This document shows, piece by piece, positions 34,919-51,140 of a stretch of 64,000 nt of DNA. This DNA comes from Dictyostelium discoideum (lineage: Eukaryota): contig CM000152.2 in assembly GCA_000004695.1 (NCBI GenBank), forward strand, positions 1,184,001 to 1,248,000, given 5' to 3'. Every line of letters begins with the position of its first letter. Within the stretch, counting starts at the first letter, position 1. A model generated the notes under the pieces. That model was not told the origin of the DNA and did no database searches. It saw only the letters and a program-made list of their open reading frames with translations. A program made the translations under genes and the position numbers.

Positions 34919-34954
34919 ATGAAAACATCAAAGGATAGTAGTAATAGCAATTCA

Positions 34955-35009
<55 letters not shown>

Positions 35010-35825
35010 GTTTAAATGGAACATACTCATCAAAATCATTATCACCACCAACATCACCAAAACAAATGAGTGGAAATAGTATAATAAGTAATAGTACTGG
35101 CAATTTAAGTAGTGGCAGTGGTAGTGGTAGTAGTAGTGGTGGAAATAAAAAATTTATAAATAGATCATTCAATACATTTATTGATTTTATAAAGAAACCA
35201 GCAAGAAGGAATTCAAAAGCACATAATACACCTCCACCTTATCCTGAAGTTGATACTGGTTTTGGATATTTTTTAGAATTAGATAGTAAACCACCAAAAC
35301 CATTTGATGAAAAGGATGATCCCATACATAATAGTACTGGTTCAACTGATAGCTGGGAAGGTGATTTAAATTCAAGTGGTGGTGGTGGTAAACAACCCCA
35401 ACAAACACAACAACAATCAAGTGGTGAAAATTTAAATAATTCTTCAGATAGAAATAACAACAGTAATGAAAATAATCAAATAGTGGACGATAATAGTAAT
35501 GTATTTAATAAAGGAGTGGTTGTACAAACAGTTCCAATGACAGAGATTGGCTTGTTTCCAGTATCTTTAATGATGGCACAACAAAGGGCTGAACATCCAA
35601 TTAATGTTGAAGATATTGAATCGGATGTCCAAACTTGTTCAATACCAAATAGTAAACCATTATATAGTTCATTAGGTTGTTCAACAAACTCTTCAAATTC
35701 TGGTTCTTCAATTTCCGCTCCAAATATTACTTTCCAATCTTTTGGAATTTCCCCTGTAAATAACAACAACAATAATAATAATAATAGTAATAATAATAGT
35801 AATAGTAATAGTAATAGTAATAGTA

Positions 35826-35906
<81 letters not shown>

Positions 35907-36792
35907 GTACTGTAAATAGTAATAATAGTAGTTTAAATAATAGCCCAAGATATCTTAATTCTTCTTCATCTCCGAGATCTATGCAACATCTATCTTCTAA
36001 AATTACAACTACTACCACCACAACAACTACTACTACCACCACAACTTCTGATGATAATAATGGTAATACTAATAATAATATAAGTAATAATAATAATATC
36101 ATTAATAATAGCAATAATAATAGTAATAGTAATAATAATAACAATAATAATATTAATAATACAAATCATAAATTTAAAACAATGGAAAAATATTTTTCAT
36201 CAAAAGAAAATTTCCCAATACCATTTCCAAAGTTAAAAGATGAATTAGGTGTAATAATTGAAAATTCAAGTAATAAAGGATATGTTGGAGGAAATAAAGG
36301 TAGTGAAGATAGAAGAAAAAAGATTGAACAAAAAAAGAAACAAGTACCAGCACCAGAAATGAAAGCAACCAAAGAGAAATTTATAGAAACCATTACTGAT
36401 CCAACCACTTTAAATTCATTTAGATCATTCATGGAGAATACACAAAGTAATGAAAATTTAGAATTCTTTTTAGAGGTTAAACGATTTAATACAATACAAG
36501 ATCAAGTCTTATTAAAACATACTTGTGATGACATTTGGAGAAGATTCTTTGATGATCTTGCAGTTACACAATTATGTGTTGAATCATCACTTAAAAAATT
36601 AATTAATAATCGTAGAGAGAATCCAACTCATTCAATGTTTAATGAGGTTTTAGATCTTTTATTAGATGATATTGTTTGTGATGCTTTTAGAAATTATATA
36701 TCATCACCTTTTAATCCAGAATGGAAAAGTGAATTTAAAAAGAAATTTACAAATAATACATATAGTACAACAACTCAACCAATTAATAATTT

Positions 36793-36824
<32 letters not shown>

Positions 36825-38296
36825 GTTCTACTCCTCCCAATAATTATAGTAGTAGTCCAATAAAACAAAGTAATATAAATAACAATAATAATAATGCTAG
36901 CAGTAGTAATATTGCAAGCAGTAGTAATGTAAATAATAATAATAATAATAGTAATGGTAGTAACACTAGTAGTTCACATCATAGAGAAAGATTAGATAAT
37001 ATAAAAGGAAATAGAGAAAGAGTAGATAGTAATGGTAAAGAAAGATCAATTGATAATAAAGATATTTTATCATTATTAGAAAGTAATTTAAGTAACCATA
37101 GTAATAGTAGTTCAAATAGTAATGGAAAAGATAAAGATAAAGACAAAGATAAAAATGAAAACACTACTGACAATTCAAATAATAATAATAATTCAAATAA
37201 TAATTTAAATAATTTAATTATAAAAAATAATTTTAATAATATTCTTCAATCACCACAAATTGTATCAAAAATTAATGAAATTTTTAAAGATTCAAATAAT
37301 TCACAATTATCAATTTCAATAACATTAGATAATGATGAAGATCCAACAATATTTCATTTGGATGAAAGTGATATGGAAAGTTTAATTGAGGAGGTTGTAA
37401 AGGATAATATATCAGTTCATACAGAGATTAGTTATAGTGATGTTTCAATTCATAAATGGATTGCTTCGGGTTCATCTGGTAGAGTTTATAATGGACAATA
37501 TAAAGGTAAGGATGTTGCAATCAAAGTACTTGGTCCTGAAGTTTGTGTACATTTCGATTTGAATGAATTCAAGAGAGAAGTTGCTTTAATGTCAATTTTT
37601 AAACATGATAATTTAGCAAGGTGTTTGGGTGCTGGTCAATATGATGACAAATATTTTCATTTGACAGAGTATTGTCACAATGGTTCTTTGTTTAGTTATT
37701 TAAGGGATCAGCGTAATAATATTAGTTTTGGTCAAAGATTACATTTTGCATTGGGTATTGCAAGAGGAATGCGTTATCTTCATTCAATGTCAATCATTCA
37801 TAGGGATTTGAAATCAATGAATATCCTATTGACAAAGAGATTAAAAATAAAGATTGTAGATTTTGGTACCTCTAGAGTAGCAAATAAATATAATATGACA
37901 ACCCATGTTGGCACCCAAGCTTGGATGGCTCCTGAGATTTTCACTTCAAGAACCTATACGAATAAAGTTGACGTTTATTCATATGCAATCATTTTATTTG
38001 AAATTTTCACTAGAAAATCTGCATACGATGAAAATGCAAATATTAACATTCCAAATATGGTGATGAAAGGTGAAAGACCAGAACTTCCAAAAGATATGCA
38101 AACTTCAATTTCAAATATAATTAAAAAATGTTGGCAACAAAAACCTTCAAATAGACCTTCATTCATTAAAATAGTTGCATATTTAGAAAGTATAATTTAT
38201 CCATCAGTTTCAAATAGTTTAGGTTTAGTTGCCTCAACTTCTTTCTCTTCTTCTGCACTTTGGTCTGGTCAAATTTTAGCACAGCCAAAAAATTAA
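34919..38296 (+). CDS. rckA: RGS-domain-containing Ser/Thr protein kinase (TKL group), single 1125-aa ORF.
   Basis: The RGS domain is 'FRSFMENTQSNENLEFFLEVKRFN...WRRFF'. The C-terminal kinase shows 'GSSGRVYNGQYKGKDVAIKVL', 'HRDLKSMNILL', 'DFGTSR' and 'GTQAWMAPE'. The N-terminal half is long Asn/Ser-rich low complexity. Length and architecture match the Dictyostelium RGS-kinase RckA as I remember it; this was not verified. Confidence 0.75.
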
Positions 38297-38620
38297 ATAA
38301 TAATAATAATATTTATATATACAATTATTCATATTTATATATATATATATATTCATATTATATATATACTTTAACCTTTCAATAATCCATTGTATTATCA
38401 TTAATTTTAGTCTTTTTTTTTGTTTTTTTTTTTTTAAAGAAAAAAAAAAAAAAAAAAAAAAACATAAAGTTTAAATAATAAAATAAAAAGGTACACATTT
38501 TATATAGTTCGAAATTTAATTATTATTTTATTATTATTTTAATTATTATTTTATATTATGTTTATTAATTTATTCTCATCACCCATCATCATTTTTTTTT
38601 CTTTCTTTTTCAGTAACTTA

Positions 38621-40267
38621 TTAATTTTTTGAAATTAAAATTGCAGAAAACATCTTAATTGATGATTCATAGTTATCACTTTTATCTTGAAATATCTTTA
38701 AATCTTCCATATAATTTTCACATGCATAAAAAATTGTATGACAATTTGAAGAACTTTTTGAACCAAAATGAACTGTACGATGATTTAAAATTTCAATTTT
38801 TGGTGGAATGAAACTTTCAATTATAAATGTTGAAATTGATAATCTCTTTATATCATATATCTCTTTTAAAGCATTCCAAATTGTTAAATCTATTCCTTTT
38901 AATTCTTTTCCACTACCAGATGATTCTAATTCGGTAGTAGTGGTATTAGTGGATGAATAAGAATTTTTTAAAATTAATCCAACATTATATAATTTTAAAT
39001 CATCTTTAATTCTATTACTAATATCTTTTATAATTGAATAATTATATCTTTTGATATTATTATAAATATTGTTTTCTTCATTTTCTTCATTTAAATATTT
39101 ATAATAGTTATAATAATCAATTGATTTAATACCTTGAGAAAATTCAATTTCACTTATTGATGGGTTGAAATTCTCTTCACAATAGCCAGTATAAATAGTT
39201 GGATTGATGAATACATTGAATTTTGAAATAAATACTACACCTTTTTCAACTGGATTTATCTTTGAAATACTTTCATTTAAAAAGAATATCCAATTTGAAT
39301 AGTTTGAGTGATATATTTCATGTGAGAAATTATTATTAAATAATAATTTTAATTTATTATTATTATTATTATATTCATTATCTTCTCTTTTTCCACCCCA
39401 AATTGGTAATAATAAAACACCAATTTGAAAATTATTAATTTGATTTTCATTTCTTTCTTTTAAATGATTTACATCATATTCAACACCTTCTTGATAAATT
39501 AAAATCTTATCAAATTCAATTTTGTAATGATCTGAAAAACTTTTTAAAGGTTTATAAATTGGTTCTTTATGATAATCATTTATTCTATTTTTATTAATTT
39601 CATTTGGAAGTTGTTGTTGTTGTTGATTATTATTATTATATGGAGTTGATAATTTTAAAATTAAATTATAATTTGGACTATTTTCATCACCACATGAAAT
39701 ATTGTCAATTAAAATTTGAGATCTTTTAGATCCAAATTTTGATTTAGAATAGGATTCATATTCAATTGGTTTTGTTATTAATAGTGATAATAATTTAGAA
39801 ATTGGTATACATTGTTGATATTGGCCAATGTTTGAATTTGTGAGAACGTATCCTCTATTTCTTCCTAAACCTTCAATAAGATTTGAAATATTATTAAATA
39901 TTTTAAAATAGTCATTACACTTTGTTAAATATTTACCAAGGTTTAATTTATTAACAATGAATAAGTTCCAGCTTTTGCATACTATTTGAATAGAGTTTAC
40001 AAAATCATATAATTCATTATGTGATAATGATTTTAATCTATAATCTAGTATTTTAATTATTAAAATATTTGCTAGTTGAATATTTTCACCTTTTAAATTA
40101 ACAATTGGTAATAAATCTTCATTTTCTTCTTGATCAAATTTTCTTGTCATTGCTGTTATATACTCTGATGATACTTGTCGATTGATTGGATGTGATGGCA
40201 TTTCAAACTGTGTTGAATGGTTTTGAGGAACTATTAATATCGGTTGTAGAGTTTGAAGTAGGTGTGG

Positions 40268-40329
<62 letters not shown>

Positions 40330-40697
40330 GAGATTGTAGTATTTGTGGATGATATTGATTTTGTAGATGATATTGATTTTGTAGATGATATTGGTTTTGT
40401 AGATGATATTGGTTTTGTAGATGATTTTGGTTTTGTATAGGTATATTGGTTTTGTATATGATATTGGTTTTGGATTAAGTTTTGTTGTGGTTGAGGATTG
40501 GGAAGTGCTGGTAGGTATTGTGACGTTTGAAATGATTCAAACATAAAGTTCTGTTCGTTTATTGCTGATGGAAATTGATAAGTTGAGCTTTGGATTTGAT
40601 TATTATTATTATTATTATTATTTCTACTATATGGATGGTAGGAATGATAACCCGTTTCTACTGTATTATTATTGTTTTTATTGTTATTTATACCCAT
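38621..40697 (-). CDS. Hypothetical protein encoded by two abutting minus-strand ORFs (40697..40203 and 40201..38621), probably one gene interrupted by a +1 frameshift or stop.
   Basis: The upstream ORF is Asn/Thr-rich low complexity and ends '...SSKPFNTV' with TGA at 40205-40203. The ATG of the downstream globular ORF ('MPSHPINRQVSSEYITAMTRKFDQEENEDLLP...', 526 aa) lies at 40201-40199. The minus strand therefore reads GTT TGA A ATG CCA. No canonical donor-acceptor pair that would make an intron of at least 60 nt is available. Confidence 0.4.
40263..40327. repeat. (GTT)21 on the plus strand, encoding a poly-Thr (ACA/ACC) tract in the upstream low-complexity ORF on the minus strand.
   Basis: A perfect GTT run, followed by degenerate 'gttttgtagatgatattg' repeats of about 20 nt (5 copies) at 40340-40440. 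Confidence 0.9.
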
Positions 40698-41450
40698 CTG
40701 GGTTGGGGAAAATAAAAAGAATTTGACGATTTTTTTTAAAAAAAAAAAGATATTTTTAAAAAAAAAAAAAAAAAAAGTAAAAAATGATTTATTTTAAATT
40801 TTTTTTTAATATGGATTTAGAATATAAATATAGAATATCAAAAATACCCAAAATGATATAAAATATAAAAAAAATGAATGAAACCATAATGATTTTCCAA
40901 TTATTTGATTTTTAGAATTTAAATATTTACTTTTCATTTTTTGTAATTGTTTTTTTTATTTTGAAGGACAATGATTAGGGAATAAATTTTAGATTTTTAT
41001 GGAAAAAAATTTTTTAATTTGATTTGTTTATTGAATTTATTTATTTTTGATTTTTAAATTAAATCTGGATTATTTTATTTGTTTTTTTTTTCAATACATT
41101 TTATTTTCTTTTTTTTTTTTTTTCATTTTATTTTCATTTTTTAATATTCATCTATTTTATTTTATATTTATTCTTTTTTTATTTTTTTAAAATGCTATAA
41201 AGGGATGATTAAATAAAAAATAAAAATAGAAATAAAATTAAAATAAAATTAAAAAGATTTGGTTTCCTTTTTTTTTTTTTTTTTTTTTTTTTTCCACTTT
41301 TTATTTTTTTTTAAATTTGTTTTTTTAATTTTTTTTTTTTTAATTTTTAAATTTTTTTTTTTTTTTTTGCTCTAAAAAAAAAGATGTTATTATTATAAAT
41401 TGAAACACTATAAAATAAAAAAAAATTAAAATAAAAATAAAATAAAAACA

Positions 41451-48002: not shown

Positions 48003-51000
48003 TTATTGAATTTTATAAACTGTTTTCATGAATTTTAATAATTGAATATCTTGTTTTGTTAAATCTTCAGACCAACCTTCTTTAAGAGCATCCAAAGATT
48101 CACGAGTGATTTTAGACATCCATTGTTTTTTATCATCAAAGTGTCTGTAAATTGTAGTTTTAGTGTTGTTATCATCGATGGCAACAGAGACGACATCATC
48201 TTTTTTGGCGAGGGTAACATCTTTTTCGTTGAGTTTAATACCAATGACTTTACCAACATCAGCGCAATTTGATTCTGGTACACAAATTGGAGTACCAATA
48301 CGAAGAGTACCTTCTTTAACACGAACACCAACAAGAATTGGATTTGAATTTCTGAAAACGTTAGTAACCTCCAAAATACATGGCCAAACACAGATACTAG
48401 CGGTTTCAGCACGAAGTTTCTCTTTGATAGCACCGAAATGTTTCTTTAATTTCTCCTCGAATAAATAGATTGTCTCATCAGAGAGAACTTGAACTTTCAT
48501 TTCATTGGCGGCTTGAATGGCAGATTCTTCAATCTTTACATCGAAAGCCAAGAGAATTGCGTATTTTGGATCCTTATCTAACATGATACTTGCGTTCATA
48601 ATGTGTTTCTTGTGAACTGGACCAATGGCGACATTGGCGACTGGAATCTTGATCTTTTTGAGGAAATTTAAAAAGGCTTCCAAAGAACCAAGAGTAGAGG
48701 CTTGAACAGACACACCAATACCAGAGGTTTCGACATCATTGAGTACAGAATCGACTTCACGTTTAGCTTCGGCTCTAATCTTTTCGATATCGTCATTTGG
48801 ACCAACGACATGAAGTGAAGTACCTGGAACAGCTTTTTCAAGGCCTGGTGCAACGATTTTAATACCCATGGCAGCACGAATACTCTTATGATTGATGAAT
48901 TGTGATTTAACACGAGATTCACGAAGTGGTGGTGGAGTGAGTAAAGAACGAATAGAAGTTTCAATTGGACCATTGAAACCGGATACTACAATCTTATCAC
49001 CTTCATTCAAAGTACCATTTACCAAGACAACATCAATGGTTGTACCAAAACCTTCGATGACTTTAACTTCCAAGAGTGTACATTGGAGTTGATTTGTGAA
49101 TTCTACTTTATCAAGCATTAACTTTTGCATCAATTGAATGACTACCAACATTAAATCTGAAATACCTTCACCAGTGTTGGCAGAGGTTGGTACGAGAGAA
49201 ACGTATTTTCTATGATCTTTATTACGCCAGTAGAGTTCAGCATTCAATTCTTGACCGGCCAAAGCTGCAATGATATCCTTAACTTTGTAATCAAATTCTT
49301 GAGCAGCAGATTTTGATTGAATCTTGTAGGCTTCTTTAAAGTCTGTATTTACACATGGCTTCCAATCGTAAATTCTATCGACTTTATTTAAGGCAACAAT
49401 GAATGGTGTTTTTCTCATACGTAAGAGATTGATGGACTCTAAGGTTTGAGCTTGTAAACCATGCATAATATCAATGACTAAAATTGCCAAATCACAAAGA
49501 CCTGAACCTCTTGAACGTAAATTGTTGAAAGATTCATGACCTGGTGTATCAATGAGTAAGAGACCTGGTAATTTAAAGTCCATTTTAATCTTTTCAGCAA
49601 ATGATTTGGTTTGTTCTTTAATTGCATCGACTGGAATAAAAGAGGCACCAATTTGTTGGGTGATACCACGTGCTTCACCACCTTGAACGTTGGTATTACG
49701 AATTTTATCCAAAAGACTTGTCTTACCTGTATCGACATGACCTAAAATACAAATGATTGGTGAACGATATGATTTATCTGCAAAGGTTGTAGTTGGATCT
49801 GTAGTTGGAATGAGTGCTGCTGCGGCTGCTGCTGCGGCTGCTTTTGCTTTCTTCTTTTCCTCTTTTGCTGCTAATCTCTGTGCTTCCTCTTCCTCCTCTT
49901 TTCTCTTGGCCTCCTCTTCCTTCTTCTTTTGAATCTCTTCAACGGTTTCATAATCATCATTATCCCAACTATCCATAACCTCAACTACGTCGTCCTTTGG
50001 TGCTGATGTTGGTTCTTCAATCTTTAATTTTTCGACTGATTCTGTAATACTTGAGACTTGATTTTGTTTTTTACCTCCACTCTTTGTTTTATTTGTTGAT
50101 TTTTCTTTCTTTTCACCGACTGCTGAAATGTTTACACCCAATTTTGCTAATTTTGCCATTCTATCAGCTTCGGCGGCTGCGCCAGCTTGTTTCTCTTTCT
50201 TTTCTGCTCTCTTTTTAGAGTTTTCAATTGACTTTAATCTTGCTTTTTCATCATCAATAATCTTTTGTTCAGCAGCACGTTTCTTCTCTTCCTCTTCTCT
50301 TATACGTTTTTCCTCCTTTTCACGTGCAATTCTTTCTTCTTCTTGTCTTTGTTTTAATAAAAATCCACTCAATACCTCTGGTTCCTCTGGTTTCTTTGGT
50401 GCTGGTTTTTTAGCTTGTTGTTTTGCTGCTGATGGTTTTGCTGCTGGTGGTTTTTTGGCATTATTTTTTTTATTATTATTATTTTGTGTTGGTTTGGTTG
50501 GTTTCTCTTCTTCCTCTGATGATGATGATTCTTCTTCACTTTCAGAAGATGATTCAACAGCTGCTGCTTTTTTAGCTGGTGCTTTTTTATTTTGTTTTGC
50601 AGCTGGTTTTGATGGTTTCTTTTTTGTGTCCTCTTCAGATGATGATTCTTCAGATTCTGATTCACTCTCTTCTGATGATGATTCTACAACTGGTTTCTTT
50701 TTATTATTATTATTATTGGTTGGTGCTACTTTCTTTGATTGTTTTGCAGCTGGTTTTGATGGTTTCTTTTTAGTATCTTCTTCAGATGATTCTTCAGATT
50801 CTGATTCACTCTCTTCTTCTTCTGATGATGATGATTCTACAACTGGTTTCTTTTTATTATTGGTTGGTGCTACCTTTTTTGATTGTTTAGCAGCTGGTTT
50901 TGATGGTTTCTTTTGAACTTCTTCTTCAGATGATGATTCTTCAGATTCTGATGATGATTCATCTACTGGTGCAAATTTAGAAGTTGGTTTTTTTTTTGAA

Positions 51001-51140
51001 ATTGGAATATCATCACTATCACTATCACTATCTGATTGTTGTTGACCTTTTTTATGAAGTTTTTCTGCTTCTTCACGATCTTTATCAGCTTCACCACTAT
51101 CCCAATAATTATCTTTTCTAACTCTTTGTTTTGGACCCAT
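48003..51140 (-). CDS. eif5b: Translation initiation factor eIF5B (IF2 homolog), single exon, 1045 aa.
   Basis: The GTPase domain shows '[39 protein letters not shown]', '[11 protein letters not shown]' and 'IVALNKVDR'. The beta-barrel domains II to IV follow. The N-terminal 450 aa are acidic, Ser/Lys-rich tandem repeats. Confidence 0.9.
   Translation of the reverse strand: [1045 protein letters not shown]
50560..50960. repeat. Intragenic tandem repeat of about 142 bp in roughly 2.7 copies within the eIF5B N-terminal region.
   Basis: The unit 'gcagctggttttgatggtttcttttt..tcttcagatgat..tcttcagattctgattcactctcttc..tgatgatgat..tctacaactggtttctttttattatt..ggttggtgctac.tt.tttgattgttt' recurs at about 50601, 50746 and 50891. 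It encodes the repeated '[43 protein letters not shown]' units of eIF5B. Confidence 0.85.

Follow-up and report, generated by a model that had tools for sequence, protein, structure and literature searches.

The two open reading frames (ORFs) that abut on the minus strand of the 64,000-nucleotide stretch of Dictyostelium discoideum DNA analysed here (the window) are one intronless gene with a 691-aa product. The split in this copy, which agrees with the AX4 reference, is most likely a reference error, a single extra base due to low read quality or to a cloning artefact. The extra base, an A at 40442, shifts the reading frame so that the 85 N-terminal codons continue out of frame for 79 more codons to a chance TGA at 40205-40203. 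One base past this TGA the true frame, read on from the repeat around the extra base, has by chance an internal Met codon, and the abutting ORFs are a by-product of the A at 40442. Most likely they represent no real biological feature, and the gene is an ordinary one.

The preliminary description of this DNA reported two same-strand ORFs meeting as TGA-A-ATG with a 1-nt gap, and both the letters of the minus strand and the ORF listing agree with it. Across the junction the minus strand reads ...AAC ACA GTT TGA A ATG CCA TCA..., and the lone A at 40202 is all that separates the 164-aa ORF from the 526-aa ORF. The composition of the window is of the Dictyostelium type (GC 0.16-0.37). In the fine composition profile the GC content is coding-like (0.26-0.36) without interruption from about 40100 to 40700, intergenic values (0.07-0.15) are found only above 40700 and at 38300-38600, and there is no AT-rich spacer at the junction of the two ORFs.

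These data bear on the possibility that the locus holds two separate genes at 1-nt spacing, or that the two frames are bridged by an intron. Both ORFs are ATG-initiated, the AX4 annotation has the downstream part alone as a gene, and 49 GT..AG pairs formally restore the frame. The absence of an AT-rich spacer argues against either arrangement, as does the annotation of a single gene (691, 679 or 710 aa) in other assemblies; the 164-aa ORF, for its part, is neither annotated nor present in any protein collection. The 49 frame-restoring pairs have an AT content of 0.60-0.77, which is coding-like, and a GTAAGT-type donor is found in 0 of the 49, so that an intron bridge was rejected. The earlier statement that no intron joins the frames holds, none of the pairs being AT-rich or having a consensus donor. 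Two genes, or one gene with an intron, is a very improbable reading.

Features of the DDB_G0278939 locus (positions are those of the window)
Feature	Positions	Strand	Remarks
Complete single-exon gene, DDB_G0278939 locus	38621..40697	-	691 codons and stop after removal of 40442
164-aa ORF	40697..40203	-	ORF listing; terminator TGA at 40205-40203
526-aa ORF	40201..38621	-	ORF listing; opens at ATG 40201-40199
True start codon	40695..40697	-	ATG kept in four of four assemblies; AT-rich intergenic DNA upstream; the L003, L004 and L005 models start here
Substitution	40848	-	5' flank; G in the window, T in all other assemblies
Substitution	40693	-	G in the window, A in all others; codon 2 GGT (Gly) vs GAT (Asp)
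18-nt tandem repeat	40342..40472	-	Tandem Repeats Finder; 7.2 copies of CAAAACCAATATCATCTA (Gln-Asn-Gln-Tyr-His-Leu)
Extra A (T on the plus strand)	40442	-	CAATAT[A]CCTATA; lengthens repeat unit 2 from 18 to 19 nt
(CAA)n tract	40263..40330	-	Tandem Repeats Finder; period 3, 22.7 copies; poly-Gln in the true frame (L003 translation)
Flagged TGA	40203..40205	-	Reads as an out-of-frame triplet spanning TT-T/GA-A of Phe-Glu; CGA in L004 and L005
Flagged ATG	40199..40201	-	Internal Met166 of the 691-aa protein; L003 translation ...HSTQFEMPSHPINRQ...
Start codon of the AX4 annotation	40148..40150	-	P0001 begins MTRKFDQ, at residue 18 of the 526-aa ORF
F-box-like motif	39920..40084	-	NIQLANILIIKILDYR...IQIVCKSWNLFIVNKLNLGKYLTK; all homologues share it at their start
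Degenerate 2OG-Fe(II) oxygenase (prolyl-hydroxylase-like) beta-sheet core	39197..39520, approximate	-	Putative; PF13640 match of homologue P0003 and alignment A4

The break in the reading frame, placed by the preliminary description at GTT-TGA-A-ATG (40202), lies instead about 240 nt upstream, within the 18-nt repeat. The three-frame translation shows no stop in the frame of the 526-aa ORF as far upstream as 40474, which gives the two reading frames 272 nt in common. Tandem Repeats Finder gives 1% indels for the 18-nt array and reports one indel. The repeat units start at 40472, 40454, 40435, 40417, 40399, 40381 and 40363, with spacings of 18, 19, 18, 18, 18 and 18 nt, so that the second unit is the irregular one. 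Units 1 and 2 are in the frame of the upstream ORF (QNQYHI-QNQY), and units 3 to 7 are in the frame of the downstream ORF (QNQNHL, three copies of QNQYHL, and QNQYHP, followed by polyQ). The extra base can be placed at 40442 unambiguously because it is flanked by T and C. With this A deleted a single 691-codon ORF is obtained (...QNQYPIQNQNHL...), and any single-base deletion nearby gives the same result; openness of a frame is weak evidence here, the G-free repeats being open in all three frames. Codon usage, trained on 11 ORFs of the window, leaves the two frames inseparable in the overlap (log-likelihood -336.0 vs -339.3).

The overlap region is of low complexity and nearly devoid of G, with all three frames open through the repeats, and the 1-nt abutment of the ORFs is therefore incidental. 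The 164-codon ORF, which had been described as Asn/Thr-rich, is in part an out-of-frame reading: its STKPISS repeats are the later repeat units, which are QNQYHL in the correct frame, and its poly-Thr (ACA) is the misread (CAA)n tract, which is poly-Gln in the correct frame. An 84-aa ORF with a long poly-Val stretch on the plus strand (window 40186-40440) is the antisense of the (CAA)n tract and the 18-nt repeats and is no gene.

The corresponding loci in three other D. discoideum assemblies were reached via the protein cluster of the neighbouring eIF5B gene (window 48003-51140), and 10 kb around each was fetched. They are L003 (GCA_054883475.1, a 6.43-Mb chromosome), L004 (GCA_054859355.1, a 2.93-Mb contig) and L005 (GCA_054859385.1, a 4.87-Mb contig). 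The locus-tag series of all three match the Nanopore and Illumina genomes of PRJNA1300491 (Holland et al. 2025, PMC12745789), a project that covers the laboratory strain AX2-214 and wild isolates, for example CR116C and OT3A (PMC12745789). L003, being nearly identical to the window, may well be AX2-214.

In each of the three assemblies the locus is annotated as a single gene, with products of 691 aa (L003), 679 aa (L004) and 710 aa (L005). Positions 20434-22509 of L003 form an uninterrupted 691-aa ORF that equals the predicted fusion except at codon 2, which is Asp in L003 and Gly in the window. L005 has one 710-aa ORF, and the first ORF of L004, which begins at the same ATG, crosses the repeats and the 'junction' and reaches the F-box region. 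The low-complexity N-terminus and the globular C-terminal part thus belong to one gene with a 1-nt frame discrepancy, as first proposed. A comparison with other isolates, which had been suggested as a check, returned a continuous reading frame in all three assemblies and no A at 40442: they read CAATAT-CCTATA or CAATAT-CTTATA where the window has CAATATACCTATA (DNA alignments A1 and A2). Here CAATATACCTATA is the form with the extra A and CAATATCCTATA the alternative form without it. The first and the internal ATG of the window lie 496 nt apart, one more than a multiple of 3; in the other assemblies the spacing is 495, 441 and 528 nt, in each case a multiple of 3. All 7 indels between isolates are multiples of 3, a regularity that repeat units of 3 and 18 nt would in part produce anyway.

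Two substitutions within the overlap distinguish the frames. The position of the TGA is CGA in L004 and L005; this change is synonymous in the fused frame (TTT>TTC, Phe) and replaces the stop by Arg in the 164-aa frame. A CCG>CCA change after the polyQ in L005 is synonymous in the fused frame only, and turns Asp into Asn in the frame of the 164-aa ORF. Because the other assemblies and the alignment read so, the two ORFs are assigned to one gene, the ATG at 40201 is identified as Met166, and the flagged TGA is an out-of-frame triplet and no true stop.

Stop-codon-stimulated +1 shifts are known elsewhere, for example in antizyme. A programmed +1 ribosomal frameshift, or termination followed by reinitiation, at GTT-TGA-A-ATG had been offered as one explanation of the junction; it would join or couple the two ORFs, and a +1 shift at the TGA would, formally, lead into the frame of the downstream ORF. 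It is contradicted by the replacement of the TGA by CGA in L004 and L005 and by the plain continuous ORF of all three assemblies, which follows the downstream frame from repeat unit 2 on. The frame discrepancy, moreover, maps to the window-private base 240 nt upstream, and the pattern of substitutions favours the downstream frame over the whole overlap. Recoding at the TGA is therefore extremely improbable, and the single gene with an extra base in the repeat is the reading followed below.

The comparison assemblies are not free of error, L004 having a 1-nt irregularity in the middle of the gene. At L004:21430-21710 (about window 39560-39620) an (AAT)4 tract is expanded to more than 100 nt. 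The expanded tract holds one extra A (TAATAAATAAT), which breaks the ORF into pieces of 341 and 291 aa, and the deposited 679-aa model would span the break by a 124-nt 'intron', judging from its span and the length of its product. The break reflects either an error of long-read sequencing or a true frameshift of the isolate.

The surroundings of the extra A at 40442 bear on whether it is an error of the reference or a mutation of AX4. The comparison of the window with L003 covered about 3 kb and gave 3 differences over about 2,990 aligned nt. The T19, T23 and A13 homopolymers are identical in the two, and every long homopolymer matches. All three differences (40848, 40693 and 40442) are confined to 406 nt, and in each the window stands alone, L004 and L005 agreeing with L003. 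By our own calculation the clustering of 3 differences in 406 of 2,990 nt corresponds to about p=0.05 when taken alone, which is modest. The comparison suggests that 40442-40848 may be a locally low-quality stretch of the reference. The G of the window at 40693 and that at 40848 each create a GGGTAT string.

Nitrosoguanidine mutagenesis, which belongs to the history of Ax3, the parent of AX4, is expected to give G:C>A:T changes. The three differences observed here are T>G, A>G and +A, none of them of this type. The mutation rate of D. discoideum is 2.9e-11 substitutions per site per generation (Saxer et al., PMC3466296), which makes three genuine mutations within 406 nt since the divergence of the laboratory strains very unlikely. 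The same study listed 1,916 discrepancies from the reference that AX4-derived lines had in common and attributed them to reference errors or to stock differences (PMC3466296).

On these grounds a real frameshift of the AX4 lineage is rather unlikely. It would require that the extra A be genuine in AX4 or in the sequenced clone, with truncation after 85 native residues and a downstream product made by initiation at Met166 or Met183. The A is present in the window, and the AX4 annotation is built on it. The gene may also be dispensable or fast-evolving, as the few homologues, the lack of a syntenic D. purpureum orthologue and the degenerate catalytic site would allow; there are many nonsynonymous differences between isolates, and L004 may have a frame break in the gene as well. 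Against these points stand the two further window-private substitutions in 406 nt of a region that is otherwise identical over 3 kb, the implausibility of three true mutations at the published rate, the type of the changes, and the detection of the protein with Skp1 in Ax3-derived cells (PMC9485057). Given a frameshift at codon 86 in the Ax3 lineage, its recovery from such cells would be unexpected, although initiation at the internal Met166 or Met183 would also agree with the Skp1 proteomics. If AX4 acquired the A privately after Ax3, the most widely used reference strain would carry a natural null or an N-terminally truncated allele of an F-box protein whose binding to Skp1 depends on PhyA, and any residual product would come from internal initiation or from an unconserved +1 shift at the TGA; this is decidedly unlikely. 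A sequencing or assembly indel, one of the causes named in the preliminary description, is the best explanation, since the A is missing from three assemblies and the private differences cluster.

The sole database protein of the locus is DDB_G0278939 (Q54XQ1, P0001; strain AX4, 509 aa), which is 100% identical to the window over its 509 aa. The ATG at 40150, the start Met of the AX4 annotation, is ATA (Ile) in L004 and L005, two wild isolates. The deposited 509-aa model therefore starts at a non-conserved internal Met. As annotated in AX4, DDB_G0278939 lacks 182 N-terminal residues, namely the Q/N-rich repeat region and the 17 residues that precede the annotated Met. The 164-aa and the 526-aa ORF were both missing from the deposited proteins of the collection, and exact-product look-ups of the 509-, 526- and 164-aa proteins gave no match. 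Only one assembly, GCA_054883475.1 of 2025, has the intact 691-aa form in its annotation. Homologue searches with the fused 691-aa protein, the 526-aa ORF and the neighbouring kinase as queries returned only the AX4 protein or distant kinases among the 8,000 best word-sharing candidates, and these searches are taken to have been swamped by low-complexity matches. The orthologues of the new assemblies (L003 to L005) are absent from the protein collection that was searched.

The 691-aa protein, a candidate F-box protein, combines an N-terminus rich in Gln and Asn with an F-box-like motif and a degenerate prolyl-hydroxylase-like domain. The Q/N-rich N-terminus, (QNQYHL)7 followed by polyQ, would be disordered. 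The F-box-like motif would bind Skp1, which would make the protein a putative SCF substrate receptor, and the C-terminal P4H-like domain, which has lost most of the iron and 2OG ligands, probably binds rather than catalyses. The conserved part begins near residue 39 of the 526-aa ORF, where the motif reads LANILIIKILDY...CKSWNLFI, and passes into a beta-rich domain (alignment A4), and the LxxILxxIL...CKxW motif is conserved across the homologues. A search of both ORFs gave no Pfam F-box match at E<=1. The sequence of DDB_G0278939 has been scored as predicted F-box-like (PMC9485057 Fig. S3), and the protein is listed among the Skp1 interactors from Ax3-derived cells, with PhyA-enhanced association in vegetative cells (PMC9485057 supplement). 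The gene ID has 0 matches in the main texts of the literature and is present only in that supplement.

The assignment of the C-terminal domain comes from homologues and from structure prediction. The aligned region of homologue P0003 matches Pfam PF13640 (2OG-FeII_Oxy_3) with E=3.6e-8. Pfam searches of both window ORFs gave nothing meaningful, P0002 was likewise without a match, and a profile search of PDB sequences found no matches. The AF2 model is of low confidence (pLDDT 52.6), so that the fold search is no more than suggestive; its top 50 Foldseek matches in the PDB are all 2OG oxygenases, the best being prolyl hydroxylases or 2OG dioxygenases, at weak scores (E>=0.008, TM 0.13-0.20). In alignment A4 the HID of the catalytic site is HL(K) in the window protein, the distal H is S and the R is V, and the protein is probably a pseudo-enzyme.

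An exhaustive HMMER search found five distant homologue clusters only, all but one of them labelled dictyostelid. They are represented by P0002 (32% identity) and P0003 of D. purpureum, P0004 of D. citrinum, P0006 of D. dimigraforme, and P0005 from a 'Thecamoeba' transcriptome. The HxD...H...R residues are kept in P0003, P0004 and P0005 and lost in the D. discoideum protein and in D. purpureum P0002 (alignment A4). Because the catalytic residues are kept in some members only, the family would include likely enzymes as well as likely pseudo-enzymes, each joined to an F-box. The entries P0005, P0011 and P0012 of the EukProt 'Thecamoeba quadrilineata' transcriptome align closely with dictyostelid paralogues (HIDT...GGEF...FSAIIIS); they could be a dictyostelid contaminant or reflect a wider amoebozoan distribution.

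The N-terminal extension is found in all D. discoideum isolates examined and not in the homologues of other species. The N-termini of orthologues, which had been proposed as a check, gave a mixed and uninformative answer: the best D. purpureum homologue, P0002, has an N-terminus of only 43 aa behind a normal AT-rich promoter, but its locus (L001, next to aconitase) is not syntenic. The syntenic position in D. purpureum (L002:12786-13328, GL871061.1), between an rckA-like RGS kinase and the next large gene, is occupied by an unrelated Cys-rich gene with a signal-peptide-like product. This product is annotated as 164 aa by coincidence; read from its first ATG, the gene gives a 180-aa ORF. Since P0002 lies elsewhere and the syntenic slot holds an unrelated gene, the family has moved or turned over between the species. 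The Q/N-rich N-terminus is probably fast-evolving.

The convergent neighbour of the gene, at window 34919-38296 on the plus strand, encodes a 1,125-aa RGS-domain protein kinase (Pfam RGS and kinase). The orthologous models in two wild isolates are 1,157 and 1,170 aa long, presumably owing to repeat-length polymorphism. The 1,125-aa ORF is not found exactly in the protein collection, and L003 annotates the same length.

The value of these results lies mostly in annotation. The split-ORF problem is an annotation and sequence-quality matter that is already resolved in the 2025 assemblies. The 509-aa AX4 model is to be replaced by the 691-aa protein starting at 40697, and the reference base at 40442 is doubtful, as are probably those at 40693 and 40848. 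Studies of the Skp1/SCF interactome that search the AX4 proteome miss the first 182 residues, and constructs for knock-in, tagging or CRISPR aimed at the annotated 'N-terminus' would hit an internal site. The readings differ in the peptides they predict. Initiation at 40697 should yield the tryptic peptide NNNNTVETGYHSYHPYSR, translation upstream of the annotated Met the peptide QVSSEYITAMTR, and a true +1 shift at the TGA the junction peptide ...PFNTVEMPSHPINR (...KPFNTV-EMPSHP...). For genome scans, the real frame break of abutting ORFs in low-complexity DNA may be far from the apparent junction.

The locus can be set beside four known systems. It encodes exactly the DDB_G0278939 protein of Boland et al. 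2022 (PMC9485057), with the F-box-like sequence and the 'beta sheet' domain as published; the deposited model differs in lacking the first 182 residues of the 691-aa form. The likeness to 2OG-Fe(II) oxygenases of the P4H type (PF13640; PHD2, vCPH, PhyA) consists in the PF13640 match of P0003, a homologue at the paralogue level, and in the weak structural matches of the window model, all of them to the 2OG-oxygenase fold. The window protein differs from these enzymes in having no Pfam match of its own and in the loss of the Asp of HxD, the distal His and the 2OG-binding Arg. With antizyme-type +1 frameshifting the junction shares surface geometry only, a UGA-ended ORF with a continuation in the +1 frame, whereas the stop is not conserved, the relatives need no shift and the break lies elsewhere. 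In pattern the locus also resembles Sanger-era reference indel errors that split one gene into two abutting ORFs: there is a one-base discrepancy in a coding repeat through which independent assemblies read, further private discrepancies lie nearby, and the annotated protein is truncated N-terminally to an internal Met. The locus differs from them in that here we infer the error.
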